Origin: Dictyostelium discoideum
Taxonomy: Eukaryota
Direction of reading: 5' to 3'
NCBI GenBank assembly: GCA_000004695.1
Contig: CM000151.3
Location: 4,480,001 to 4,544,000 of the forward strand
Length of the DNA stretch: 64,000 nucleotides
Positions 36,195 to 62,145 of the stretch are shown in pieces. Numbering within the stretch: position 1 is the stretch's first letter; every line of letters begins with the position of its first letter. Position numbers and translations under genes: made by a program. The notes beneath the pieces are model-generated. The model worked only from the letters and a program-made list of their open reading frames with translations, did no database searches and was not told where the DNA came from.

Positions 36195-36210
<16 letters not shown>

Positions 36211-36375
36211 CGTAGTGAATTTTATTATTTAATTTCACTACAGTAGCGTAGTGAAAAAAAAAAATCACTGACCTTAAATTTTTTTTTTTTTCAAAAAACA
36301 AATAAAGTTTATTAAATTGAAATTTTATTTTTTGTTTTAATTATTATTTTATTTATTTTTATTATAATTATTGTT

Positions 36376-36414
<39 letters not shown>

Positions 36415-38671
36415 CAATTTTTTTTTTTAAATTTTTTTCAATTTTTATTTGTTTATTAAATTGTAATTTTATTTTTTGTTTTAATTATTATTTTATTTAT
36501 TATTATTGTTAATTTTTTTTTTTTTTCAATTTTTTTTTTTTTAATTTATTTTTATTAATTTATTTTTATTAACTCCCTGAGTTGTTCAATTGCTTGATTT
36601 ACCATATCACTGTAAACACTGCACACAATTGAATTTTTTCTAGCTTTGTTACCTCTGGTGCATTTGATGTTTTTGCATTTTCCTTTGTATACAAAAAAGT
36701 CCAAATATAATTCGTTTTCTATTACAGTTTTTACACAATGTTGGTGAAATTGTTTTGATTTTAATTCTAATGCTTCTAACATCATATTTGGATTTTTAAC
36801 GATTAAAGCATCACCACTATTTACATATAGTACTTTGGCTGCTTTTTCGAGGAATTTAGTCAAATTTTCCTCTGAATCTAACTATTCTTCATTGCCATAT
36901 TCAATGGCTAAATTTCTTAAGAGTTTTATCGAATCTATTAATTCTTCGATCATTCTTTTTTTTTGAAATTTTTTTTTATTTTGTTTTTTCAATTTTTTTT
37001 TTTTATTTTGTTTTTTCAATTTTTTTTAAGTTTTATTTTTTTTTATTTTTTTTTGAAGGCTATTGATTCCATCTTCCAAAAATTCAAGTTTATAAAGTTG
37101 TTTAGTGTCTTCCTGTATTACCTTATGAATTTTACACAAAATCAATATTTTCTATTAGAATTAAATATAAAATTTGTTAATTATTACTGTTTCATATATT
37201 ATTAATCTTTATGTTTTAATTACTTACATTATTTTTTTTAATTTCTAGAAAGAGTACAGTATCACCAACTTTCAATCCCTTTGGTGGTTTTGAATTCCAT
37301 TGATTTTGGTAACTTGTGAGATTTTCAAGAATAATAGCTGTTCTTTCTTCTTTTGAAACATCTGAAACACCAATTGATTGAGAGTCTTGTTCTGATTGAA
37401 CATTAATAAACAAAGGAACAATACCAACAGCTTGAGATGGTGTCATTTTAATTGTTCTTGTTTTTGTATTATTGTAATCATACAAAGCTTGTTTTAATAG
37501 TTCAGAAAGAGACCTAGAAGTACCATCAAGAAAACTAAAATTTATTTATAAATGATTAATTAATAAACATATCGATAATTTATATTGTTCACAATATCAT
37601 ACTCTTGTTGTTTTAATTTTGAGATCCTCTCCTTGATAGTTCGATTCAATCTTTCTACCATACCTTGAGTTGTTGGTGTACGAGGAGCTCCATGTGCTGA
37701 CTTGGAGCCTGGAAAAAGTTTTAGGAATTCTTTTTGGACTTTGTTTTTAAATTCACGTCCATTATCGCAGTGCCATACTTTCACAGGTTTGCCAAAGTAC
37801 GTGAGAGCCAAAAAATTGTATATGGGAACTGTTCTCTTTGTTGTCAAACATCTAAAAAATAAATGATAATTAAAATAAAAAAAGAAAACTAATAAATTAA
37901 TAAATAAAAAATAAATACCTTCCAGTAGCAAATTTTGTAAAAGAATCTATGCATAGAATAATGTAAACAACATCGGTGTCGTACGGTTGTACAGAGTCAT
38001 ATTGGATAAGATCATCTAGTTTAGTTAGTATCTTTTCATTATCATCATCGTATGTAACTTTTTCTTTATGTTCACCTTTAATTGATGTTAAATCATAAAC
38101 CAATCTTGAGTATTCCTCGGTATCTACAATTGGAGCAAAATCCTTTGTTATACCTATTAATTTATTTAAATTATTAAAAGAGTTTTAATATAAAAGTTAC
38201 AAAACATCATATAAAAATGATTGATACCAAACCTTTTATTCTATTTCGTTGGCAAATGTCACACGTATCTACTGCATCAGATACAAAAGAATACAATCCC
38301 ATATTATAATATTTAGTCTTGTAGTTCCCATAGGTTGCATCTCTTCCTATATGACCTTTATGCATTTCTTCCCAGAGTGATACCATTCTATAATCATTAA
38401 TTACTTCTAAACACACTTCTTTTGATATATTTCTATCTCCGCCACAATTCATGACTTTTTTTTCAATTCTAAATAATTTTTCTTTTCTGTTTCTGTTTTT
38501 TATTGGTCAGAATTTAAAAAATGATTGTGTTATTGTAAGGAAAAATATTTACTCATCATGTAAAAATTTATAATTTTTATGTTTAGTATTTTCAAAATTA
38601 TTATCTTCAATAAATTTTAAATAATTTATAATTTCATTTATTTTATCTTGTTTCATTTTGGGAAAATGAAA

Positions 38672-38706
<35 letters not shown>

Positions 38707-38961
38707 TGTTGGGGAAAAAAAAAAAAAGTTTTGGCCCAAAAAAAAAAAAAAAAATAAAATAAAAAAAAAAAAAAATAAAATAAAAAAAAAAAAAAATAAA
38801 AAAACTTATATAGAACTAATAATCAAATAAAAGATAATAATTTAATAAACTTTATTTGTTTTTTGAAAAAAAAAAAATTTAGGGTCAGTGATTTTTTTTT
38901 TTCACTACGCTACTGTAGTGAAATTAAATAATAAAATTCACTACGCTACTGTAGTGAAATT
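36195..38961 (-). mobile_element. DNA transposon of about 2.77 kb with roughly 78-bp terminal inverted repeats, encoding an integrase-like (rve/DDE) transposase. It is a TDD/Ginger-type element like Dictyostelium Tdd-4/Tdd-5.
   Basis: The left end (36195..36272) is aatttcactacagtagcgtagtgaattttattatttaatttcactacagtagcgtagtgaaaaaaaaaaatcactgacc. The right end (38883..38961) is its exact reverse complement. The internal minus-strand ORFs encode an H2C2 Zn-finger, a DDE core and a C-terminal domain. About 80-bp subterminal direct repeats lie at 36293..36380 and 36437..36520. Confidence 0.85.
36555..38656 (-). CDS. Transposase of the retroviral-integrase type (H2C2 zinc finger + DDE catalytic core), interrupted by several short spliceosomal introns. 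The exon coordinates are approximate.
   Basis: The ATG at 38656 gives MKQDKINEIINYLKFIEDNNFENTKHKNYKFLHD. A ga|GTAAAT donor and tttag| acceptor join it in frame to IEKKVMNCGGDRNISKEVCLEVINDYRMVSLWEEMHKGHIGRDATYGNYKTKYYNMGLYSFVSDAVDTCDICQRNRIKG (HHCC). The next exons give …IQYDSVQPYDTDVVYIILCIDSFTKFATGR and …WHCDNGREFKNK…HGAPRTPTTQGMVERLNRTIKE (D,D,E). A further exon gives …KPPKGLKVGDTVLFLEIKK. Confidence 0.7.
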
Positions 38962-38968
38962 TTATTGA

Positions 38969-41351
38969 AAATTCCCTACAACAATCATTATTCATGGTAA
39001 ACAATTTAGAAATGATTACTTTTATTCAAAATTTGGTGATCAAGCAAATTTAAATGTATTTTCAAATGGTATGTTTAAAAAACTATTTAAATTTAATTTT
39101 TTATATTATTTTTTTAAACTATTAAATTAATATTCTGGTTCTAATTTTTTTTTTTTTTTTTACTTAATTTTTTATAGATTGTTTTGAATTTCCACCAAGA
39201 GTTTCAAATTTAACTTTATTATCTAGTAATAGCGTTACATTAAACTCTAATCAAACTATTGGATGGGAAATTGTAATTGATAGTGGTGGTGGTATTAAAA
39301 TTAGTTATGTATTTATACATGTAATTTCAAATTTAGATAAAAAAGGATACACATTTGAATTCTATCCAAACTCTACCTCATGGGAAACCACAATTGGAAT
39401 TGCTCTATCACCAGAAACAACACCATCACAAATATTTAAAATTTATAATGCAACTATTATTGACGAAAGAGGAATTAGATCGGACCATATTGATAGTTTT
39501 AAAGTTGATGAAATTTTTTCAAATCAAAGTCCAATTTATCCAATTTCAATTTCACCATTTTATTTATTTGATCTTAGTTTATTTAGCATAACAGTTAATT
39601 CACCATTCATTACTGAATCTGTTCCACCAACAATTACACTTGTAACCCTACCATTTGAAAATGTAGATGATTTTTTACAATATTCAATTTTCTTTCAATT
39701 AGTGTCAACTGATAATGTTGGTATATTAAAAAGCCATATACCACAAGTTTATTTATCGCATTCATCAAACTATGGAGATTTACAAATTTTCCAATGTAAT
39801 ACAGCTATTAATGATACGTCTGAAACAACTTGTAATTATTATGTTACTTGTAAAGTTGAATATGGTTATGGTATTCAAAACCCTGTATCTGTTTTAGTTT
39901 ATGGTGTTGTTGATACTAGTTTCAATGTTGCAAGCTATAGTAGTTTAAGTGAATCCCAAACCTTTGATTTTAATGGTCTTTCCAATAAAAAAACACCTTC
40001 AATTTCAAGTTGGACACCATTAACACCATATAATAATAAATTAACAATTTTTGGTAGAAATTTCCCAACATCAGGTGGAAGTGCTTATTTATATTATACA
40101 GATAGTGATATTGATAATTTAGTAACTTTGAAATTTATTCATTCATCATCTGTAATGGCAGTTTTAGAAATTGGACAAGGTTTAAAACCATTTGTAGTTT
40201 ATACTCAAAATTCAAATAATGAAAAATCTAATAAAGTTGAAATTCATTATTTAGGAATTCCAACATCTTCTTCATCCTCATCTTCATCATCAGATGATGA
40301 TTCAACATTACCACCAGTTTTATGTTTTGATAATTGTGGTGGAACATCAAGAGGTACTTGTATTCCAAATGTTGGATGTAATTGTAAATCACCATATAGT
40401 GGTATAAATTGTCTTTCTGAAACAATTAAAATTCCAAAACCTCAAACAAATACAACATCACCAGATTCAAGAAATGAATTCCCTATTAGTGGTTCAGATA
40501 TTAAACTAAATACAATCATTTCAATTGTAGCATTAAGAGAATTAGATTTTCAAGGTAAACAGGTTAATATTCATTATTTTGATAGTTGGAATTTTACAAC
40601 AATATCTCAAACCAATTTCACATATAGATCACCAATTTTAAAAAACAATCAACATGTTTCAAATATATCAGTAGCAATGGAATGGCATGAACAATCTACA
40701 ACTATTACATTTGCAAAACAAAATCTCACAATTAATCCATCAACTTTGAAATATTATATTTCATTAGATAAATACCCATTTGCATCATCATTAAATACAC
40801 TTGATTTAATCATTAAATCAATGTTTAAAAGTTCACAAACTGATGATGTATGTGGCAGTAAAGGATTTTCATTAAATGATGGAAATGATTATATGACATT
40901 ACAAATTGGAACATACTCATTTGAAGGTAAATTTATAAAAAAAGCAATTATCAATGGCAATAGAATTGTAACAATAAATAATAAATTATTAAATGAAAAT
41001 CAACTAAATAGTAATTCAACTATAACTAAAGAAAAAGATTCATCAAATCAACTTTCATCCTTTATCTCAATTGAAATACCTCATTATGATTCAAATGTAT
41101 TATTAGATCCAAGTTTTTCAGTTTTATTAGATTCAAATGAATCATATAAAAACTCTGAAAATTCAATTTGTACTTCAAAAAAATCCTCAAAACTTACTAC
41201 CGCTCAAATAATTGCTATTGTTATTGTTTCTGTAGTTTTTGTAATAATTCTAGCTCTCTTTATAATCGTTAAATTTTCAAAATCTGATAAATTTTTATCT
41301 ATAAGAATTTTCTATTATAAATTATTTAAACGATTTAAGAAAAAGTATTAA
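38969..41351 (+). CDS. EGF-like domain / single-pass transmembrane protein, the C-terminal half of the gene split by the transposon. Exons are 38969..39068 and 39178..41351.
   Basis: The open frame begins right after a TGA at 38966-38968, next to the right TIR. It reads FPTTIIIHGKQFRNDYFYSKFGDQANLNVFSN, then a g|GTATGT donor and ttttatag| acceptor lead into …CFEFPPRVSNLTLL… An EGF-like Cys pattern follows (CFDNCGGTSRGTCIPNVGCNCKSPYSGINC), then a C-terminal TM helix (IIAIVIVSVVFVIILALFIIV) and a short cytoplasmic tail. There is no signal peptide or ATG of its own; the listed 'M' at 39702 is a GTG. Confidence 0.55.
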
Positions 41352-46377: not shown

Positions 46378-46611
46378 AAAAAATAAAAAATAAAAAAAAA
46401 ATAAAAAAATAAAAAATTAAAAAAATAAAATAAAATTTAATATCAAAATCATAGTTAAGATGAATTGGCATTGATTATTTTAATAATAAAATTAAAACAC
46501 TTTTTTTGGAGTTGTTTAAAATTTTTATTTTTTATTTTTTTTTTCCTTTATCGTTTATTAATTCTTTTTTAATATTTTTTAAAATTATTAACTTTTTTTT
46601 TTTTTTTTTTT

Positions 46612-46663
<52 letters not shown>

Positions 46664-46719
46664 ATAAATCATAGCGCCAATCTTTAAAATTATATTTAAA
46701 ATCATATTTAAAATCATAT

Positions 46720-48613
46720 TTAAAGTTCATTAGTTTTCATATATAAATATTTATGATATAATAAATCAGTTTCATTTTTTTCATCATATTTATCAAATAG
46801 TTGCATTAAATCATATTTTGTATCATTGAAAAGTTGATATAGTTGTTTTGCTTTTTCAAGATCACTAACACCATTTGGTACATCACCATTATAATACATA
46901 TCTGATAAAATAAAAGGTGATAAACATTGATAGCCAGAAATATGTAAATATTTTACTTGAATTCCATCTGCATTTTCAATTGATTTATTAAAATAGTAAA
47001 TTGATTTCTCTAAATCAATATCTTCACCAAAAAGACCAGAACGATAAACATATCCTAAAAATTCTTGAGCTCTAATTACACCACCATTAATTTTATGTAT
47101 ATTAAATAATTCGTCATCGTTATCACTATTACCATTATTTATTAAATCAAAATTAGGTGGTAATGTTGATGCGTGTAACATTAAACCAATTATTAATTGA
47201 TTATTTCTAATATCAAAGTCTTTTGGGTTACTAGGTATTAATGAATTTGCAAATTCAAAATAAGGTTGAGCATATTTAGTTTGGTTACCTATACATCTAC
47301 TGAAAGCTTCTGCCTGTAAATCTAAATTTGGAAAAGTTCTTAATCTAACAACATCTGAAATGAATCTTTCAATTAAATGTTTTTCAGATAGTCCGAATGT
47401 AATCGAAGAATTAAAATACTTTTCATAACTTTTCCCAGTTTGTTTCTTTATTAATATTTTAAATTTATCAGTTAATACTTCTTTAAATTGATTTAAATGA
47501 AGGTTACCAAGTTTTTCAATTCTCAATTTACATTCTTTTTCAAAATCCCTTTCTTTATCAGACAATTTACATTGATTTGATAATTTTAATTTTTCATTAG
47601 TTTCAAATTTAAATTTATTAGTTTCTTCAATTGATGATTTATCATTTTGATTTTCATTATTATTAGATAATAATGATAATGAACAATCAGAAAATTGAAT
47701 TGATCTTTCAAATTTTGAGAATTTACTGAAAATTTGAGCGATTCTATAATATGGTTTAAACCAGTTTGGTCTTTTTGATAATGATAGGATTGAATAACGT
47801 AATGATTCGTGAATTGGTAATGGATATTGTTCGACAAGATTAATGATTCTCTTTGGATCATTCACTTTTGCTAAAAAACAAGTACTGATATTTAAATATA
47901 GTATACCTTTAATACTATCTGATAAACCTCCTAATGTGAATGCTCCTAAATAACTCTCAATCGCTTTATCAAATTCACCTCTACTAAATAATTTATTACC
48001 ATTATCTTTAAATGTATTAACTTGATTTTTATTATGTGGTAAAAGCCAATAATCATCCACACTATTTGAATTCATCGGTTGAATAATCTGTTCATCAACA
48101 CAAACCACTCCACTGAGCCTAATTTTTTTTAGAAATTTAACTGTCATTTCTATAATTTCTTTAAATTTTTCAATACTAATTTTAAAATCTTTTATATTAT
48201 CAACTAGAATATCATATAATTTAAAATTAATATTTAATTTTGAAAATGATTTATTATAAAAAAAAGAGTTAAGACTTACAATTTAAATTTAAATATTGTT
48301 TAAATTCTTTAATAGAGTCAACAACATTTTTAACTTCTTTTTTAACTTGTAAAATTGAAATGATATTTGTAATTAGTTTAAATGAAAAATTTTCATGGTT
48401 ACCAATTTGTAATAATAATTTTTCTGCTATTGTTAAAGCTCTATAACCTTGTAGATCATTTTGTCTATACAATGTTTCATACTTTTTTGGTGAACGTATA
48501 TCCAATGTTTTTGGAGTATTTGTTAAAATTAATTCAAATAATTTATCTTTTAATTCTGATACTAAAAGTGATTCAATCAAATATTTAATTTTAAAATAAT
48601 TATTTGTTTCCAT
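46720..48613 (-). CDS. TPR / Sel1-like repeat protein of about 605 aa. Exon 1 is 48613..48280, the intron 48279..48204, exon 2 is 48203..46720.
   Basis: Exon 1 (METNNYFKIKYL…KEFKQYLNLN) ends at t|GTAAGT. The acceptor ttctag| restores the frame into …FDNIKDFKISIEKFKEIIEMTVKFLKK…, the listed 475-aa ORF. An N-terminal TPR-like unit reads FKDNGNKLFSRGEFDKAIESY. C-terminal Sel1-like units read AQEFLGYVYRSGLFGEDIDLEKSIYYFNKS and KAKQLYQLF. Confidence 0.65.
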
Positions 48614-48670
48614 TTTATATTTCTATATTTATAAAAAATAAAAACATAAAATCAAAAAATGGTTATTTTT

Positions 48671-48706
<36 letters not shown>

Positions 48707-49283
48707 AAAAAAAACGTTCAAATGGTAAAATGTTACCTAAAAACAACTATACCGATTTTTATTTGATACTTCACTATTTATTTATTCTATTAAATATTTA
48801 TTAATTTATTTATTATTATTATTAACTTTTTTTTATTATGTACAAAATTTATTTTTTATTAACTTTTTTTTTTTTTTTTTTTTTGATAAGGAATAAACTG
48901 TATAAAATATAATTAATAAAATTAATAATGTTCTCAAACATTATAAATTATTATTAAAAAATAAGATTTATTATAAAAAAATAATAATATTAATAAAAAA
49001 ATAATAATATTAATAAAAAAATAATAAAAATAAAAAAAAATAAAAAAAACCAATAATAATAATAATAATTTTTATTTATTTATTTATTTTTTAATTTAAT
49101 TTTCAATAAAGAAGTTTAAAAAAATTAAGAAAAGTTATTTTAATAAATTAATAAATATAAATAAAAAAATTATCAAAATAAATCTAAATAATTTAAAACA
49201 GTATTTTTTATTTTTTTTTATTTTTTTTTATTTTTTTTTTATTCATTTTATTTTTTTTTTCTAATTAATTAAAATAAATTTTA

Positions 49284-49577
49284 TCAGTAATTAATTTTAT
49301 CAGTAATTAATTTATCTGTGTTTGAGGTACAATATTTCCCTATTCGTTCCATTTCTTTCTCATGTCTTTCCAACATTCTTGCATGATTTTCCATTTCAAT
49401 CATATTACTCTTTTGGATTTTAAAATTCTTTAACCTATTATTTTCCCTTTTTTTTGATAGCAATCGGTTACATGTACTACAAATAAAACTATCATTTAAA
49501 AATTTACCATCAATTGGTATTTCAAGAAAATGGAGTTCACATAAAAAATCTGGAATTTGTTCCAATAATTCTTTCAT
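49284..49577 (-). CDS. Small hypothetical protein, 97 aa, Cys-containing. A Lys-rich ORF lies just upstream on the same strand (49620..49748).
   Basis: Genuine ATG (MKELLEQIPDFLCELHFLEIPIDGKFLNDSFICSTCNRLLSKKREN…). The upstream MKKSKINKDKKEKKRVEKSEDPIPKKKKKSVLSEENKIVE* ORF could be a 5' exon, but I could not build a splice that joins them. Confidence 0.3.
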   Translation of the reverse strand: MKELLEQIPDFLCELHFLEIPIDGKFLNDSFICSTCNRLLSKKRENNRLKNFKIQKSNMIEMENHARMLERHEKEMERIGKYCTSNTDKLITDKINY

Positions 49578-49813
49578 AACCTCTTCATTATCAATAATAT
49601 TTTCATTATTTAATAAAAAATTTCATATTATTCATTCAACAATTTTATTTTCTTCAGACAATACACTTTTTTTTTTTTTTTGGAATTGGATCTTCAGATT
49701 TTTCAACTCTTTTTTTCTCTTTCTTATCTTTATTTATTTTACTCTTTTTCATTTTTTATATTACTTTATGATTTTAAATAAAACTAAAAAAAAAAAAAAT
49801 TAAAAACTTTTGT

Positions 49814-49856
<43 letters not shown>

Positions 49857-50109
49857 ATAAAAAAGAATAAAAGAAAATTCTTTTAAACCCTTTTTGGGAA
49901 AAAAATAAAAGGGGTTTTTTTTTAATTATTATTCTTTTTAAGATTCAATGGTTTTTTATTTATTTTGTTGAGGGCTCATTTTTTATTTTTTTTATTTTTT
50001 TTATTAATTACTCAGGGTGATCATTTTTTTTTTTTTTTTTTTTTTTATTAATTGCTCAGGGTGTTTATTTTTTATTTTTATTTTTATTTTTATTTTTTTT
50101 ATTTTTTTT

Positions 50110-50340
50110 GGAGACTCCTTCAATCAAGCATTGGATGGAAATTGGCCACCAAGAAATTTAGTGGAACTATCATTTGGAAGGGGATTTGAACAACCAATTA
50201 AAGTCTCATAAACTACCTCAATCGTTAACTAGTATTATTCTTCACGATGGCTATGATGAAGTTATTGAGCCAAATTCAATTCCTCAATCAGTAACAACAC
50301 AAGATTGTGAAATTAACCTATAAAAAACATTCATCAATTA
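50110..50340 (+). pseudogene. Degenerate FNIP-repeat protein fragment (gene debris). More decayed coding-like GC-richer sequence follows to about 50940.
   Basis: …NWPPRNLVELSFGRGFEQPIKVS*…LPQSLTSIILHDGYDEVIEPNSIPQSVTTQDCEINL* shows FNIP-like periodicity (L..L.FG..F.QPI…IP.SL) broken by stops and frameshifts. It is flanked upstream by three copies of a 'ctcagggtg(a/t)tcatttttt' motif (49965..50070). Confidence 0.35.
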
Positions 50341-51330
50341 GTAGTAGTGTTTTAAACTCTGTAACTAGATTATATATTACAAGTGCTTCAGCTGATCATC
50401 TAGATCCCAAATCATTTACTTCTAAAGATATATTATACCATTGATCTAAATTTGAATCAGTTATATTCTCAATTGGTGCACACCAATTGATTTCATCATG
50501 ATAATCATAATCTGCTTGTTTTCTTTTATTTGATAAATCTATATTTTGTTTAAATAACCATGGTACCCAATTATGATTTGGAAATAGTGAATAACATATT
50601 TTAATAACTGATCTACCTTAATAATTAACTAAACTTGTACCTTCAGCTATATTATTAAAATCACTTAAACCAAGTTTATAACATCATCAATTTTAGATTG
50701 ATCACATGAATTTAAAACTATATTAAATTGGTTTATGTTTTTCAATTAATTCAAAAGTACTGTACCATGTGGTGTACCATATGGTGCACCGTGAACATTA
50801 TATCCCAAACACTGGACCCCTAATGCTATATAAAATATAGATGATTCATTATAATTAATTGGTCTATCTATAATTGTTTTATTAGTTAATATTTTAGTGC
50901 TATTGCTTTTATTGAATCTTTTTAAATGTCAAGAGAAATTTAAATATTTTTTATAAAATTTATTTTGAATTAAAAAAAAAAAAAAATAAAAAAAAAATAA
51001 AAAATGGAAATAAAAAAAAAAAAAAAATTAAACAGAACAAAAGTTAAATTAAAAAAAGAAAATTATGTTTTTTTTTTTTTTTTGGTCAAGATTTTTCCCA
51101 ATAAGTGGATTCTTAATTTCATAAAAAAAAAATAAAAAAATAAAAAATAATAATTATAATAATAATACTATTTCAACATGTAATTTGAAAAAGTTTTGAT
51201 AGATTCAACAATTCAAATAAAAAGACAATACAACATAATAATGGATAAAGATGAAACAAAATAAAATTAAAAATAGATTTAATATTATTTTTTTTTTTTA
51301 TTTAAATTTTTTTTATTCCAAAAAAGGAAT

Positions 51331-51362
<32 letters not shown>

Positions 51363-51499
51363 AAAAATAAAAAAAATAAAAAAAAAAATAAATTAAAAAT
51401 TAAAAAAAATAAAAAAATAAAACAGTTTTAAAAAAAATTTTTTTTTATTGTTTTTAAAAAATATCAAGCGAGCGATACTTTTTATTGTTTTTTTTTTTA

Positions 51500-51540
<41 letters not shown>

Positions 51541-51582
51541 CCCACAATTCATAAAATTCCTCCCCCTTATAAATAAATTAAA

Positions 51583-52438
51583 ATGAGTGCACCAAACAAT
51601 AATAATAATAATAATAATACATCACCAAGACAAACAACAACATCACCAACAACAACAGCAGCAGTAACAACAAAAGCTCCTGGACCATTTCATTCACATT
51701 CCACACCTCAATATTTAAATTGTGCACCAAATTGTAATACATGTACATCACCAAATGTAAATTCAATAGAGATAGATCAATTGATAGCTAATAATCATGC
51801 CTGGTCAACTAGAATCAAACAAGAGGATCCAGGATTTTTCACACATTTAGCAGAGGCACAAAAACCACGTTTCCTTTGGATCGGTTGTTCCGATAGTCGT
51901 GTTCCAGCTGAGCGTTTAACTGGTCTTGAAAGTGGTCAACTATTTGTTCACCGTAATGTAGCCAATTTGGTAATTCACACCGATTTAAATTGTTTATCGG
52001 TTGTCCAATACGCTGTGGAAGTATTACAAGTTGAACATATCATCATTTGTGGTCATTATGGTTGTGGTGGGTGTTGCAGCCGCTTACGATAATCCAGAGT
52101 TGGGTTTAATCAATAATTGGTTACTTCACATTAGAGATCTCACCTTCAAACACGCCACTATGATCTCAATGTTGGAGGGCAATAGAAAACGTCTCTTGGA
52201 TACCTTGTGTGAATTAAATGTAGTAGAACAATGTTTCAATTTAGGTAATTCAACAGTTATGCAATCCGCCTGGAAAAGAGGTCAAGATGTTAAAATTCAT
52301 GGTTGGATTTACGGTATTCAAGATGGTTATCTTCGTGATTTAGGTATCACTGCTTCATCTCGTGATACTTTAGAATCAAATTATAAAAATTCAATTCAAA
52401 AATTAAAAGAAAATATTTCATTAAGTACAAGTAACTAA
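51583..52438 (+). CDS. Beta-class carbonic anhydrase with an apparent +1 frameshift at about 52069-52071: frame 1 runs to 52070 and frame 2 from 52072
   Basis: Frame 1 reads …[16 protein letters not shown]…[12 protein letters not shown]. Frame 2 then reads (G)[23 protein letters not shown]…, which is the canonical beta-CA CxDxR / HxxCGG(V/I)xAA arrangement. Deleting one G from 'ggtgggtgtt' makes a single 284-codon ORF. Confidence 0.8.
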
Positions 52439-52647
52439 AATTAAATTAAGTTAAATAAAAAAAAAAAAACAAATGTAAAAAAAAAAAAAAAAAAAAAAAA
52501 AAAGACCATCATTTTTTTTTTTTTATATTTACAAAAATCTTTTTTTTATTTCGGTTTTTTTTTCATTTTTTTTTTTTAGAGTTTCCGAAATTTTCAAAAA
52601 TAAATTAATCTAACTTTTAATTAATATAACTTTTAATTAATTAATTT

Positions 52648-52688
<41 letters not shown>

Positions 52689-53605
52689 AAAACCAACATC
52701 AATACAAACCTCAACATTATATCATATTAATAAAAAATTTATTCTATAAATTAAAATTAAAAAAAGGATTAAAAAAAAAAAATGAATAAAAAAAAAAAAA
52801 ATGAATAAAAAAAAAAAATGGGTTGTTTAAATTCCGATGCCATCTGTTTTATTATCAATGATTGTTGTTGAAATTTTGTTTACAAATTATGATTGTTAAA
52901 TTAGAAACAAAAAAAAAAAAAAAACAATAATATTTCCATTTTAAAAATCAATTACAAAAAAAAAAATATAAGCCATCCCTCTTATAATATGCTTTTATAA
53001 TGAAAATGACGATGAGAATGATGAGGAAGAGAAGTCAAAGATTAAGGGGATACAATTTTTTAAAAAAATGAAAAAAATAAAAAAATTAAAAAAATAAAAA
53101 TAATAAAAAAACATATTATTTTGTTGTATGAATAATGGAATCTTTACTTTATTTGTTTTTTTTTTTTTTTTTTTTTCATCTTTTTCTTCTTTTTCTGAGT
53201 TTTTTTAATCACACAAACCCAAAAAAAAAAAAAATTGATTTTTTTTTTTTTTTTTTTTAAAAAATAATAATATACAATAAAAATAAATAAAACTTAAGTT
53301 GTAGGGTTAAAAATATGTTTTTTTTTTTTTTTTTTTTTTTTTTTCCTTTTTTTTTTTTTTTTTTTTTTTTGAAGTTCTTTTTTTTTTTTTTTTTTATTTC
53401 TCATAATTACTACCACCCATGTTTAATTCTATCCTCTGCAAATATAAGGTTAATCTAGATAGAATGAAAAATAAAATTGAAAATATCTATTAAATTTATT
53501 TTTTAATCGAGATTGGCCCATGAAAATTTTTTTTTATTTTTTTTTTTATTTTTTTAAATTTTTTTTTTACCATTTTTTTTTTATTTTTTTTCTTTTTTTT
53601 CATCA

Positions 53606-53636
<31 letters not shown>

Positions 53637-54300
53637 TACTGCAACTGGTGTCATATTATATACATTTTAAATTAATTATCAACGCGCACCATCTCCTTAA
53701 ATAATTAATAGCAGTATTATTATTATTTTTATTATAATAACTATTATTTCTGTAAAAATAAACCTTGTACAAATTGTATTTAATAAAATTTTAAAAATAA
53801 AAAAAGAAGTATAATTAAAAAAAAAAAAAAAAAAAAAAGTAAAATTAAAATTAAAAAAAAAAAAAAAAAACCATATAATAATTAAAAAAAAAGGTATGTA
53901 ATGCTAGGTCCAACTTTTTTTATTTTTGTTTCATTTTTTATTTATTTTGCCTTCTTTGTTTTGAGACAAAAAATAAAAAAAATAAAATAAAATAAAAAAA
54001 AATAAAAAAAAAAAAAGGAAATTTTTTTTTTCAATTAAAAATCTTTTTTTCAACTGCATTACAACCAACTAACTTTTTTTTTCTTTTTTTTTTTTATTTT
54101 TTATTTTTTTTTTTTTTTTTATTTTCTATTGTTTATTTATTCTTGTATTATTTCCATCAATAATATAGATTTTATTAATTTTTTTTAAATATCTAATTAT
54201 TTTTTTAATTTTTTTTTTTTTATTAAAATTATTACATTTGTATTATTATCTATTTATTAAAATTTTTTTTTTTTTTTTTTTTTAATTAATTAATCTTTAT

Positions 54301-54335
<35 letters not shown>

Positions 54336-54414
54336 AACACACATATATAATTTATTTATTTATTTATTTTCAAAAAAAAGAAAATAATAATAATAAAAAA
54401 AAAATTAATAAAAA

Positions 54415-54974
54415 ATGGAAGACGATGATACCTTAAATGGTGAATACTTTCAACCAGTAGAGGATATGATTACTCTACCAATTTTAACAGAAGAATCTTT
54501 ATTACTCAATTTAAAGATGAGATATAAAAAGAAGGAGATTTACACTTACACTGGTTCAATTTTGGTAGCAGTCAATCCGTACGAAATTCTACCAATTTAT
54601 ACAGCAGACATTGTGAAAAGCTATTTCGCCAAATCACGTAATCTCATGTTACCTCATATTTTCGCTGTTTCCGATGCAGCATTTACAAATATGATCGAAG
54701 AGGGTAAAAATCAATCAATTATTATTTCTGGTGAATCTGGTGCTGGTAAAACTGAATCAACAAAACTTATCATTCAATATCTCGCCGCAAGAACAAATCG
54801 TCATTCCCAAGTCGAACAAATGATTGTTGAATCTTCTCCAATCTTGGAAGCTTTTGGTAATGCAAAAACAATTAGAAATAATAACTCTTCTAGATTTGGT
54901 AAATTTATTGAAATTCAATTTAATAGAGAAGGTCATATTTCTGGTGCTAGAATTATAAATTGTAAGTTTTCCAG

Positions 54975-55014
<40 letters not shown>

Positions 55015-55550
55015 GTATTAATATTTTTTTATTTCACTTTTTTTTTCATCAACCCTCTTGTCAAAATTTTTTATTTTTTTTATTTCTCAATTCTATCAAA
55101 CCATACCAAAAAAAAAAAAAGACTTATTAGAAAAATCTAGAATTTCACATCAAGCTAGTTCAGAAAGAAATTATCATATTTTTTATCAATTATTAGCAGG
55201 TGCATCAGATGAATTAAAAGAGAAATTAAAATTGGGTGAACCAGAAGATTATCACTATTTAAGTCAAAGTGGTTGTATTAGAATTGAAAATATTAATGAT
55301 GTTGAAGATTTTGAACATGTCAAATATGCAATGAATGTTTTAGGTCTCCCAGAAGATAAACAATTTACAATCTTTTCAATTGTTTCAGCAGTTTTACATA
55401 TTGGTAATTTAAAATTTGAAAAATCTGAAAAAACTCAAGGTGCTGAAGGTTCTGAAGTTTCAAATAAAGATAGTAAGTTATTTAATTTTTTTTTTTATTT
55501 TTTTTTTTTTTTTTTTCATTTTTCAAAATTTATTTAAGCATATATACTAA

Positions 55551-55581
<31 letters not shown>

Positions 55582-58500
55582 TTTAGCATTAAAAATTATT
55601 GCACAATTATTAAGTGTTGATCCAGTTAAATTGGAAACTTGTTTAACAATTCGTCATGTTTTAATTCGTGGTCAAAATTTCGTAATTCCATTAAAAGTTA
55701 ATGAAGCAGAAGATACTAGAGATTCTTTAGCAAAAGCATTATATGGTAATGTTTTCAATTGGCTCGTAGTTTTCATCAATTCTAAAATTCATAAACCACA
55801 AAAAAATTCAACATTTATTGGTGTATTGGATATTTTTGGTTTTGAAAATTTTAAAAAGAATAGTTTTGAACAATTTTGGTAAGTTTTTTTTTTTTTAAAA
55901 ATATATATATAAAAAAAAAAAAATAATTTCTAATATATTTTATTTATTTTTTTTAAAAAAAAAGTATTAATTTTGCAAATGAAAAATTACAACAACATTT
56001 TAATCAACATATTTTTAAATTAGAACAAGAAGAATATGAAAAAGAAAAAATTAATTGGAGTAAGATCGTATATAATGATAATCAAGAATGTTTAGATTTA
56101 ATTGAAAAGAGACCATTAGGTATTTTAAGTTTATTGGATGAGGAGAGTAGATTCCCACAAGCAACAGATTTAACCTATTTGGATAAATTACATACCAATC
56201 ACGAGAAACATCCATACTATGAAAAACCAAGACGTTCAAAGAATACATTTGTTGTGAAACATTATGCTGGTGAAGTACATTATGATACTCAAGGTTTCTT
56301 GGATAAGAATAAGGATACCGTTAGTGATGATCTTTCAAGCTTACTTCAAGGAAGTAAGAGTAAATTCATCATTGAATTATTTACACCACCAAGAGAAGAG
56401 GGTGATGACAGTGATAAGGGCAGAGAGAAGAAAAAGACAACAGCAGGTCAAACATTCAAGACACAATTACAATCGTTGATTAATATTTTATCATCAACTC
56501 AACCACATTACGTTCGTTGTATTAAACCAAACACAACCAAAGAACCAGCAGTATACGATCGTGAATTGATTCAAGCTCAATTAAGATATGCAGGTATGAT
56601 GGAAACCATTAGAATTAGAAAATTGGGTTACCCAATCCGTCATACACACAAAGAGTTTAGAGATCGTTATTTGATTTTAGATTATCGTGCTCGTTCCACC
56701 GATCATAAACAAACTTGTGCAGGTTTAATCAATTTACTCTCTGGTACAGGTGGTCTCGAAAGGGATGAATGGCAATTGGGTAATACTAAAGTTTTTATTA
56801 GAGATCATCAATATTTGAAACTTGAGGAACTTAGAAAATTAAAACTCCTCAAAAAAGTTACACTCATTCAATCAGTTTGGAGAATGTATCGTTGTAAGAA
56901 ACGTTATCAACAAATACGTGCCTCTGCAAAGATCTTGGGTGCCGCCATGTTATCCCATTCTTCAAGAAGAGACTTCCAAGAACAACGTCAAGCCGTTCAA
57001 AGAATTAAAGGTTTCTTTAAGATGCTTACCTATCAAAAACAATTTAAAATCATTCAAATCAACCTTAGAATCGTTCAAAATAATATTCGTTCATTCATTG
57101 CTCGTCGTCATTCAAGAAATGCAGTTTTACTAAAAAGAGATAGAAATGCAAGAATGTTGGAAATTCAAAGAGAAAAAGATGAGGAAGAACGTAATCGTCA
57201 AGAAAAAGAAGAACGTGATCGTCAAGAAAAAGAAGATAAAGAGAAAGAAACCGCTGATAGAAGACAACTCCAAGAAGAACAAAAACGTCGTGAAGAAGAG
57301 TTGCGTGCTAAACGTGAAGAAGAAGAATTGAAGAAATTGGAAGAAAAGAAATCACAATTAAAAGAGTTGAATCAAATCGATGAATTATCATCACTCGAAA
57401 GAATGCTCAAAGAACAACAAGATAAAAATATTAACGAACTCGATGATTTTGTTAATTCTTTAGAGGCTTTCTCATTCGAAGGTGGTGTAGACGATTCTCA
57501 ACCATACTCTTTCAATCATAAAATGTATGAAATGTCCCCAGAAGCACTCGATAAAATTTCAATCACTGATTTACTTCAAGGTTTAAAACAAACCGTTAGA
57601 TCCGTTACTAAATTTGAAGTTGATGAATCTAAATTTGAATTACCACCAGGTATTGAAAATGTACTTAAAAGAGCACCAGGTATTAAAAGACAAGCTTCTT
57701 CTTTCTTACCAGGTCAACCAATCCCAGATGTTTATTCTTCACCACAATATCCAGTTGATGAAGCTGATGATGATGATAGTAATAATAATTACATAAATAG
57801 TAATAATGGTGATTTACCACTTCCAACATCACAATCCTCCGATTTCTCATTACCACCACCACCATCATCATCTTCAATGGACTTTGGTTTACCACCACCA
57901 CCACCATCATCATCATCAGGTGGTACATATTCATTACCACCAATGCCAGTATTTGATTTCGGTATGATTGATCCAATTTTAGGTGCACCACCACCACCAC
58001 CATCAACATCAGATTCAACATCACCATCAGCAACAGCAACAGGTAATAATACACCAAATTCATCATCGGCATCAGCAAGTCAATCAACTAATCAAGTAAA
58101 TCCACAACCAACTGTTTCAGTTGTTGAATTACCACAAATTTTAAATGATGAAGAGATTTCATTATATTCATTCTATGATTATGCAAATAAGAATTTCAAT
58201 ATTGAAAAATTAAAACAAAAAGATGATATTTTCAGTTATCAAAAATCTCATATCAAATCATCATTATTGGTACACAGTGATGCAGAACAAACTAAAGTTG
58301 CAGTTGAAATCTTTAGTAAGGTTCTTCATTATATGAATAGCAATCCATTGGTTTCAAAGAAAGATCCAGCCGATTTCTATTCACCAGTTAAATTCATCTT
58401 AACCAAAGGTTTAGCCATTGAGAGTTTAAGAGATGAAATCTATTGTCAATTGATTAAACAATCCACTAGTAATCCAATTCAAGATTTAAATATTCGTGTT

Positions 58501-61500
58501 TGGGAATTAATTCATTTCACTTGTTCAACATTCCCACCAACTAGAAAATTAATTAAATATTTTGCAGCTTATCTTAAAACTACCATTCAACAAAGTGATG
58601 TTTCAAAATCTGTAAAGGATTCAGCACAAGCCTCCTATTTCATTCTTCAAAGATTCACATTAAATGGTGCACGTAAACAAGTACCATCTGTAACTGAATT
58701 AGAATCAATTAAAGAGAATCGTCCAATTTTCGTTCGTATTACCGCCACCGATGGTTCATTGAAGGGTTTACATATTGATAGTGCCACTACTTGTCAAGAG
58801 TCTTCAAATGATTTATCACAACGTTCGAGAATGCGTGTAAATTCAAAAGAGAATGGTTTCACTATCATTGAATCATTCAATGGCATTGAAAGAGATATCG
58901 CACCAACCGATAAGTTATGTGATGTATTGAGTAAGGTTGAGAATTTACAAGCAACCCTCTCAAGTAAGATTCAAGTTAATTTCAAATTTGTTTTCAAAAA
59001 GAAATTATTCTTTGATAATATCACCAATAATGTACCAACCACTTCAATCAATGTTGAAAATGAATTTTATTATCATCAATTGTTTAATGATTTATTCAAT
59101 TCCAATTATTGTAAGGATCAAGATTATCAAATTTCAATTGGTTCTTTGAAATTACAATTTGAGTCTTCTGATTACACCGATGAGATAAGAGCTTGGCTAC
59201 CAGGTAATGGTCGTGGTAAATATTTCACTACTGATATCGAAAAGAATAGATTCGATGATTTCATCAATAAATATAAATCACACAAAGGTTTATCACCAGA
59301 GGATGCAAAGAAACAAATGGTTCAATTGTTAGAGAAACATCCATTGGCAAATTGTTCATTGGTTGTATGTGAACATCAATCTGAATCACTCCCATACCCA
59401 AAGAATTTCGTTTTAGCATTGAATGTCAATGGTATTAATATCTATGATCCTGCCACTAGTAAAATGTTAGAGTCTGTCAAATACTCAAATCAATCTCAAC
59501 AAAATTTAAAGAGTGATGATAAATCAGTTTCGATCATTTTAGAGAATAAGAGTACTTTACAAGCATTCACTGGTGATGTTCAAAAATTGGTTTCATTAAT
59601 TAAAGAGTATTCATTATATTTAAGAAACAATGCTAAATATGCCAGAGCCTTAAAGGATTACAATGTTTCAGATACTTCATTGCTACCATTCAAGAGAAAT
59701 GATATCATAACTATCACATTTAAAGATCAAGAGAATAAATGGTTCATGGGTCAACTCAATGGTAAAGAAGGTTCATTCCCAGTTGATCATGTTGAAATTT
59801 TATTATCTGATGTACCACCACCACAACCAGTTCATCCAGTTGCTACTTTATCACCCCCAATGTCACCAACTATTCCAAACATTACAAATACTCCACCACC
59901 ACCACCATCAATTAGTGATTCAATGTCACCACCACCACAAGTTGGTATGTTACCACCACCACCTCCACCATCAGTTATGGGTTCGACCAAACCAATTGAA
60001 ATTCCATCATTAGGTATTCCACCACCACCACCATCATCATCAAATTCATCAGTACCAAATTCACCAATTGGTTCACCAATGATGGGTATTCCACCACCAC
60101 CACCAACTATTTCAGTTCATTCATTGTCAAACAGTGGTAATAGTACTCCTCCACCACCACTACCATCACTTTCAACTCCACCAACACTTTCAACTCCACC
60201 ACCAATTTCATCACCACCAAACTTTAGATCATCATTAAGAGTATCAATGCTTAATACATCAAATGATGGTGGTGATAATAGTTCTGATGATCCATCAAAG
60301 AGATTAACAGTTTCGCCAGCCATTGGTACCGATAGTCAATTGGCACAATGGGCATCAACTCGTTTCCGTTCATTCAAGAGAGCATCAACATTGAATCAAC
60401 AACAAGCAACCTTAAAGAGAAAAGCACCAGTCGATCCAAATACAGCATTCTACTTTAACAAGGATCCAATTAAAGAGTCATTGATTGAAATGGAAGCAAA
60501 ATTATCAAAGAAAGCCATTAAAAACTTTTCAGAGATTATGATGTGGATGGGTGATTATCCAATTCCAAAGGGTCAAACAGCATCATTGGTAATTCAATCA
60601 ATTATTTCACGTGGTATTGAAAATCATGAATTACGTGATGAAATCTATTGTCAAGCCTATCGTCAAACCAATAAGAATCCAAAGGTTGAATCAGCCAAGA
60701 AAGGTTTCGAATTAATCTATTTCCTTAGTATCACATTCTCACCATCAGACTCATTGTTACAACCATTCATGGAACAATTAATGTCAAGAAATATTGCAAT
60801 TCAATCAAGTTCACCACAATTGGCTTCATTGATTGCAGTTTGTATTGAGAAATTAGAATCTCATCCAATTCCATCCTATCAACAACGTAAGATGGGTCCA
60901 TCAGCCACTGAAATTCAATCATTCCGTTCAAATCTTGAGAATGGTGATATTAGCACATGTAAAATTCGTTTCATTGATCAATCTACTAAACTCGCTAAAA
61001 TCAACACCTATACAACCATCAGAGAGATCACCGATACCGTTTGTCGTCAATATGGTATCTCACAACAATCGATTAAAATGTTTGGCATTAGTGCAGTCAA
61101 TGAAACCGCAGGTATTAGTAAAGTGGTATCCGAGACCGATATGATTTACGATGTTTTGGCTCGTTGGGAACAAAGTGAAGAAAAGGGTGAATTCTATTTC
61201 CAAGTTCGTCGTAGATTCTTCTTGGATGATGTAAATAAAATTTTGGATCAAGAGCATCTTTGGACTGATGATGATATTTGTTTCGAGTTAACCTATTGTC
61301 AAATTCGTGATGAATGGATGAAAGGTTTATACACAAATGTCAATGAGAAAGATTCATCGATTATTGCCGCAATCTTAATTCAATTGTTATATCCAAATCA
61401 ATCCAAATTGGTTTTAACCAAAGAGGTTGTTCGTCAAGTTTTACCTGATCAAATTTTGAACTCTCAAAATATAAAGGTTTGGATCTCAATGATTGAATCT

Positions 61501-61848
61501 CAAATCTTTGAATTGGTCTCTCAAACCCCAGAATACTTGAAATTGATGTTTATCAATTTAATTGGTTCAAAATCACCATTATTCGGTTGTACATTATTTA
61601 ACATTCAACAAAAAGAAAATCCACCAAAAGCTTGGTTGGCCATCAACAAAAAAGGTGTTTCCATTTTCGATCCACACACTAAAGAATCTAAAAACTTTTG
61701 GACTTTCCAATCAATCTCAAATGTCGCTTTCACTGATGACACTTTTTGTATTATGACTGGTAATTTAATGAAACCAATTAAACAAACCTTTACAACTGAT
61801 GAACATTCTTCAATTGCTTCAGTTTATCAATTTTATTCTTCTCAATAA
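54415..61848 (+). CDS. myoI: Unconventional myosin VII with motor, IQ motifs, coiled coil, two MyTH4-FERM modules and an SH3 domain; 2357 aa. Four exons: 54415..54961, 55122..55472, 55587..55878, 55965..61848.
   Basis: Motor motifs are present ([26 protein letters not shown] restored across intron 1, [17 protein letters not shown] restored across intron 3, LDEESRFPQ). All donors are GTAAGT and the acceptors are aaaaaag|, ttttag| and aaaag|. The spliced length of 7074 nt gives 2357 codons, matching Dictyostelium myosin VII. The MyTH4/FERM and SH3 signatures are in the 3' exon. Confidence 0.9.
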
Positions 61849-62145
61849 AAAAATTAAAATAAAATAAAATAAATAAATAAAAAAAAAAAACAAATAAATA
61901 AATAAATAAAAAAAAAAATTAAAAAAATTAAAAAAATTAAAAATACATATTAAATTTTTGTTGTTAAAAATGGAAATTTTGGTTATTTGGGCTCCCTTTT
62001 TTTCAGATAAATAATTGAAATCAAAAAAATGAGTTTTGGGATATTTTAATTTATTTTCGTAAAAAAAAAGTTGTGGTGTGAAAAAAAAATAAAATTTTGT
62101 TGGTGTTTAAAATTTAAAAAAAAAAATTTTAAAAATAAAGAATAA

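Follow-up and report, generated by a model that had tools for sequence, protein, structure and literature searches.

Does the single extra G that splits a conserved gene in the Dictyostelium discoideum AX4 chromosome 2 reference belong to the organism or only to its sequence? The base lies in a stretch of 64,000 nucleotides (hereafter the window; G+C content 23 %), inside the β-carbonic anhydrase gene DDB_G0274643 (Q555A3). The whole gene spans 51583..52438 on the plus strand, like all its parts described below, and is intron-less with 284 codons plus stop if the extra G is ignored. As found, the frame-1 ORF runs from the ATG at 51583 to 52092 and encodes 163 residues of the true protein, among them the four zinc ligands (C102, D104, H158 and C161), followed by the out-of-frame residues CCSRLR and a stop. 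The frame-2 continuation at 52073..52438 covers the C-terminal half of the enzyme, V164 to N284, and ends with the stop codon at 52436-52438. The extra base sits in the GGG run at 52069..52071, where all other genomes have GGT GGT GTT. From 52060 the window reads GGT TGT GGT GGG TGT TGC AGC CGC TTA CGA TAA; the junction has the form GGTGGGTGTT with the extra G and GGTGGTGTT without it, and deletion of one G from 52069-52071 yields a 284-aa protein. The class VII-like myosin gene (MyTH4/FERM, ~2357 aa) lies downstream at about 54400-62000 on the same strand.

The initial annotation had given 52060-52075 as GGT TGT GGT GGG TGT T and had placed the break within a CGG(V)AA motif, and both readings are exact, the former taken directly from the sequence. 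Translation confirmed the frame-1 end and the frame-2 continuation that it had described. Its statement that the removal of a single G restores a 284-codon β-carbonic anhydrase is also exact, as the repaired protein contains one full Pfam PF00484 domain and aligns with E. coli Can without a gap at the junction.

With the frame mended, DDB_G0274643 is an intact, intron-less gene of 284 codons for a predicted type II (Can-like) β-carbonic anhydrase. The repaired protein matches PF00484 (Pro_CA) with 173 bits over profile positions 2-155 of 156 (cut-off 25.7), and the separate frame-1 and frame-2 pieces match positions 2-69 and 73-155, respectively, so that they are the two neighbouring halves of a single domain rather than paired by chance. 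The score against the NCBIfam model NF007756 (carbonate dehydratase, Can type) is 390 bits (equivalog cut-off 251). E. coli Can (YadF; PDB 1I6O/1I6P) aligns to residues 63-275 with a single two-residue gap, and the match to 1I6O (364 bits) shows no gap across the junction. By this alignment C102, D104, R106, H158 and C161 correspond to C42, D44, R46, H98 and C101 of the E. coli enzyme, and the zinc ligands, arranged as Cys-x-Asp-x-Arg and His-x-x-Cys, are invariant in 19 sequences. Type II enzymes have a non-catalytic bicarbonate site with Trp39, Arg64 and Tyr181 (E. coli numbering), and W99, R124 and Y243 of the Dictyostelium protein stand at the aligned positions. The Cys-Asp-His-Cys zinc ligands and the Trp/Arg/Tyr bicarbonate-site residues are thus shared by both proteins. 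The Dictyostelium protein differs from E. coli Can by a 60-residue eukaryotic N-terminal extension, which is Asn/Thr-rich and bears a phosphorylated SPR site, by an added C-terminal tail and by its presence in mitochondrial preparations.

The best database matches of the repaired protein are D. discoideum proteins. To enterobacterial homologues its identity is about 72-74 %, and dictyostelid β-carbonic anhydrases in general are 70-74 % identical to the Can proteins of enterobacteria (Erwinia, Yersinia, E. coli). Such identity is unusually high for a eukaryote-bacterium pair and would be consistent with horizontal transfer. A gammaproteobacterial link of the dictyostelid enzymes has already been proposed (PMC4793742).

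The AX4 reference also contains a paralogue, Q55BU2 / XP_646739 (cDNA Q94473), which we presume to lie on AX4 chromosome 1. The two proteins are 79 % identical and share the family, the architecture and the motif GCGGVAA(A/S)YDNPELG. The paralogue differs in its N-terminus, in its C-terminus, which reads LKDNCSLGDSN, and in that its gene is intact in the AX4 reference.

The repaired 284-aa sequence is an exact match to KAM9945295.1 (ACTFIT_003551) from assembly GCA_054883475.1. Locus L001 of this assembly aligns to positions 46548-57473 of the window, and within the carbonic anhydrase coding sequence the G at 52069 is the sole difference between the two. BioProject PRJNA1300491 (Holland et al. 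2025, PMC12745789) comprises ten isolates sequenced with Nanopore and Illumina reads, three of which carry the label D. discoideum: AX2-214, a laboratory strain, as well as CR116C and OT3A, which are diverged. We infer that GCA_054883475.1 (ACTFIT) represents AX2-214, since no other D. discoideum genome of that project is near-identical to the window and since the identity of its loci L001, L005 and L008 to the window (99.3-99.7 %) fits the 99.5 % published for AX2 versus AX4 (PMC12745789).

The extra G is missing also from four further assemblies that are 5-9 % divergent at the locus. All four of the other genomic loci (L001-L004, of which L001 is the inferred AX2-214) read GGT GGT GTT and hold single-exon carbonic anhydrase genes; between the window and L002 the coding sequence shows 16 substitutions, two of them amino-acid changing. 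At the protein level the motif GCGGVAA(A/S)YDNPELG is unbroken in 18/18 dictyostelid orthologues and paralogues, among them the D. purpureum gene, sequenced by the Sanger method, and the AX4 paralogue Q55BU2. Across the sequences compared, the extra G is shown to be private to the AX4 reference sequence, and the gene is intact in the other genomes. A decayed pseudogene was rejected, because the gene carries no other lesion and the remainder of its coding sequence is identical to the inferred AX2 gene.

We also searched for the shifted form in public data. Neither the 169-aa truncated product nor any of four possible frame-2 products, one of them with a TTG start, was found by exact look-up among 15 billion public proteins, so no independent assembly with the shift is known, although this is weak negative evidence. 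A homology search with the frameshifted ORF1 in the Logan assemblies of public runs recovered no fragment with the out-of-frame end; bacterial homologues scoring ~190 bits hide fragments shorter than ~95 aa in this search, and fragments of at least ~190 aa would already have shown in the homology search with the repaired protein. A metagenome scan using a pattern that covers both versions of the junction returned 0 matches.

The AX4 protein record itself bears the trace of the extra base. Excision of exactly 52067-52097 from the window reproduces the 274-aa Q555A3 of AX4, which is identical to the window translation on both sides of the gap and lacks ten residues. After loss of 31 nt the frame is maintained only in a sequence with the extra base, so the AX4 reference carries the G and the shift is spanned by its gene model; we take the window to be that reference on the strength of the reconstructed protein. 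The interval (52067..52097, 31 nt, plus strand) has GT and AG ends, and the frame left after its removal is open and identical to Q555A3, as would be expected of a genuine small intron with a real 274-aa product. Its length of 31 nt and its composition, with 55 % GC in a genome of 23 % GC, argue against this, and so do the ten residues that it would cost. These have counterparts in E. coli Can and, except for one position with A or S, are conserved in 18/18 relatives. Moreover, the genes of the inferred AX2, CR116C/OT3A, M4B and S6B are single exons, with a gene span equal to the coding length. On the composition, the deleted conserved residues and the lack of an intron there in relatives we rejected a genuine intron, whose probability we consider negligible. 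The spurious 'intron' implied by the protein record is an annotation device.

Two published proteomic data sets bear on the translation of the gene. A C-terminal 11-residue phosphopeptide was reported from the mitochondrial phosphoproteome of Ax2 and of a strain derived from it (PMC8584165). We mapped it to the end of the frame-2 part, downstream of the shift, and it is specific to DDB_G0274643, as the paralogue ends with LKDNCSLGDSN. The chemotaxis phosphoproteome, obtained mainly from Ax2, contains the phosphorylated Ser-14 of the DDB_G0274643 product (PMC6397043). These data show that in Ax2 translation covers the part beyond the shift, and hence that the gene is expressed and read through there.

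To see the extra G in its context we compared 51 kb of the window (within 1-57473) with loci L008, L005 and L001 of GCA_054883475.1. The window is the longer sequence at 35 of the 37 indels, nearly all of them in long A/T runs. This bias points to systematic under-calling of homopolymers, as expected of a long-read assembly, or else to their over-calling in the reference, and with under-calling in A/T runs GCA_054883475.1 would itself not be error-free. Only two single-base indels fall in ordinary coding sequence, at 52069 and at 188, and both are GGG in the window and GG in the comparison assembly. Position 188 (run 186-188) lies inside a His/Gly-rich gene with a 263-aa product at L008 16785-17686; here the reading frame of the window changes from 2 to 3, while the comparison assembly is continuous (SYPGHHGHQGFPGHHFGGGHH). 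The extra G at 186-188 is likely a reference error of the same kind as that at 52069. A protein cluster look-up with a 256-aa single-ORF version of this gene, whose annotated 263-aa product is spliced, gave no match. Among 177 GGG/CCC runs only these two differ between the window and the comparison assembly, and in both the comparison version gives an intact protein that is consistent with its repeats or homologues, so that these two are not compression errors of GCA_054883475.1.

Further differences are found close to the gene. At five clearly alignable sites (52069, 52505, 52554, 53871 and 53950) the state of the window is matched by no other genome. At 52069, 52554 and 53950 the outgroups agree with the inferred AX2 assembly, as they do less clearly at 52505. 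Their sequence at 53871 corresponds to neither version, which leaves that site unpolarised, and the differences at 52536 and 52685 are ambiguous. The differences at 52505-52685 flank the carbonic anhydrase gene on its 3′ side, and those at 53871 and 53950 belong to the next intergenic region. Three of the sites are G/C doublings present only in the window (52554 CGT to CGG, 53871 C to CC, 53950 TC to CC). The cluster at 52505-53950 suggests a low-quality stretch of the reference.

Elsewhere in the window, the phosphofructokinase gene (834 aa, PF00365; 30635-33139, plus strand) is identical in the inferred AX2 and in contigs of public sequencing runs. A 2.8-kb element at 36198-38982 has terminal inverted repeats (arms 36195-36414 and 38742-38961), and split ORFs on its minus strand match the integrase zinc-binding domain PF17921, with the rve_3 integrase core below its curated cut-off. 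The element is absent from the inferred AX2, where its flanks overlap by ~3 bases inside a gene for a 1380-aa protein (L005 13249-17923). It has the appearance of a DNA transposon, perhaps resembling the Tdd-4 type, whose insertion distinguishes the two laboratory lines.

What, then, is the nature of the extra G? The initial annotation had named a sequencing or assembly error among the possible explanations, and this is the one favoured here: the base is private to the AX4 reference sequence, and it is a true feature of the window but most likely not of the organism. A programmed +1 frameshift, which had been listed as much less likely, is effectively removed by the absence of the extra G from all orthologues and paralogues. 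Such a mechanism would have the ribosome stall at the very rare GGG codon and make the full-length enzyme from the shifted mRNA. GGG accounts for just one of 285 glycine codons in the long ORFs of the window and would be a 'hungry' zero-frame codon at the shift site, and reading either GGT-G-GGT-GTT or GGT-GGG-T-GTT gives the correct protein, but an inserted base explains the rare codon equally well. A rare zero-frame codon at the shift point is also a feature of the +1 shifts of antizyme, yeast Ty1/Ty3 and bacterial prfB. The shift sites of these systems are conserved across species and have defined heptamers and stimulators. In contrast, the site in the window exists in one reference sequence alone, being absent from the inferred AX2 gene, from the four other assemblies and from 18/18 orthologues and paralogues, and it contains no known +1 heptamer. 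The sole protein evidence comes from Ax2, whose inferred genome assembly has no shift. It is not credible that a single laboratory reference should possess a programmed signal of its own, and with the conservation test failing completely we rejected this mechanism despite the rare codon; it would be extraordinary if it proved correct.

A real one-base insertion in the AX3/AX4 line or in the sequenced clone, in line with the recent inactivating mutation named in the initial annotation, deserves more weight, though we judge it improbable. It would inactivate one of two β-carbonic anhydrase paralogues, with the intact second one in AX4 (Q55BU2 / XP_646739) covering the loss. Since AX2 and AX3/AX4 descend from NC4 by separate derivations, a mutation private to AX3/AX4 fits every comparison made, including the intact gene in the inferred AX2 assembly and in the Ax2 proteomics. 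The lack of any other lesion in the gene is what a very recent event would predict, and the transposon in the window that is absent from the comparison assembly indicates that genuine differences between the lines exist. Against this, a real mutation needs two independent frame-breaking +G events within 52 kb (188 and 52069) in addition to several G/C doublings specific to the window. Mutation was measured at 2.9e-11 per site and generation, and of 1917 candidate substitutions that AX4-derived lines showed relative to the reference, 1916 were common to more than one line (PMC3466296). Given these two figures, real divergence of laboratory lines cannot supply so many changes, and documented errors of the reference far outnumber plausible laboratory mutations.

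We consider it very probable, on the genome comparisons and protein data above, that the AX4 chromosome 2 reference has a single-base error at 52069-52071, namely the extra G. In the 2002/2005 Sanger reference GG would have been called as GGG at 52069-52071, and the annotation of the reference would then have taken out 31 nt as an intron to hold the frame open. This removal gives Q555A3 (274 aa), without the ten residues directly after the zinc-ligand cysteine. The AX4 strain itself would presumably lack the extra G. The change of GG to GGG at 188 together with the G/C doublings specific to the window fits a pattern of reference base-calling errors, and the scarcity of GGG among glycine codons points the same way for 52069-52071.

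A comparable case is clcD (DDB_G0278639; Singh et al. 2017, PMC5282741), for which a two-base 'intron' in dictyBase hides a base missing from the reference. In both genes a single-base indel of the reference breaks a conserved ORF and an artificial intron conceals it. They differ in that clcD lacks a base and has an 'intron' of 2 nt, whereas DDB_G0274643 has an extra base and an 'intron' of 31 nt with GT..AG ends, at the cost of ten residues. The clcD error was proved by RNA-seq (22 of 23 reads; PMC5282741), whereas the case of DDB_G0274643 rests on other genomes and Ax2 peptides. In dictyBase the same study counted 102 gene models with a total of 119 introns of less than 5 bp (PMC5282741). 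DDB_G0274643 is not mentioned in its supplements, and since its 'intron' has 31 nt and GT..AG ends, a screen for introns <5 bp would miss such cases.

Should the G after all be real, AX3/AX4 would be a natural null for a mitochondria-associated β-carbonic anhydrase that AX2 keeps, a metabolic difference between the lines unrecognised so far. We regard this outcome as doubtful; such a strain difference would be worth knowing, though modest. The main value of the finding is the correction of the reference gene model. Q555A3 / XP_644170 (274 aa) lacks ten residues beside the active-site cysteine, and the correct product has 284 residues and equals KAM9945295.1. The 274-aa form has already entered a phylogeny of β-carbonic anhydrases (PMC4793742), and the phosphosites Ser-273/Thr-272 in Table 1 of PMC8584165, numbered on the 274-aa model, become Ser-283/Thr-282 on the 284-aa protein. 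More generally, indel errors of this reference can hide behind normal-looking GT..AG 'introns'.
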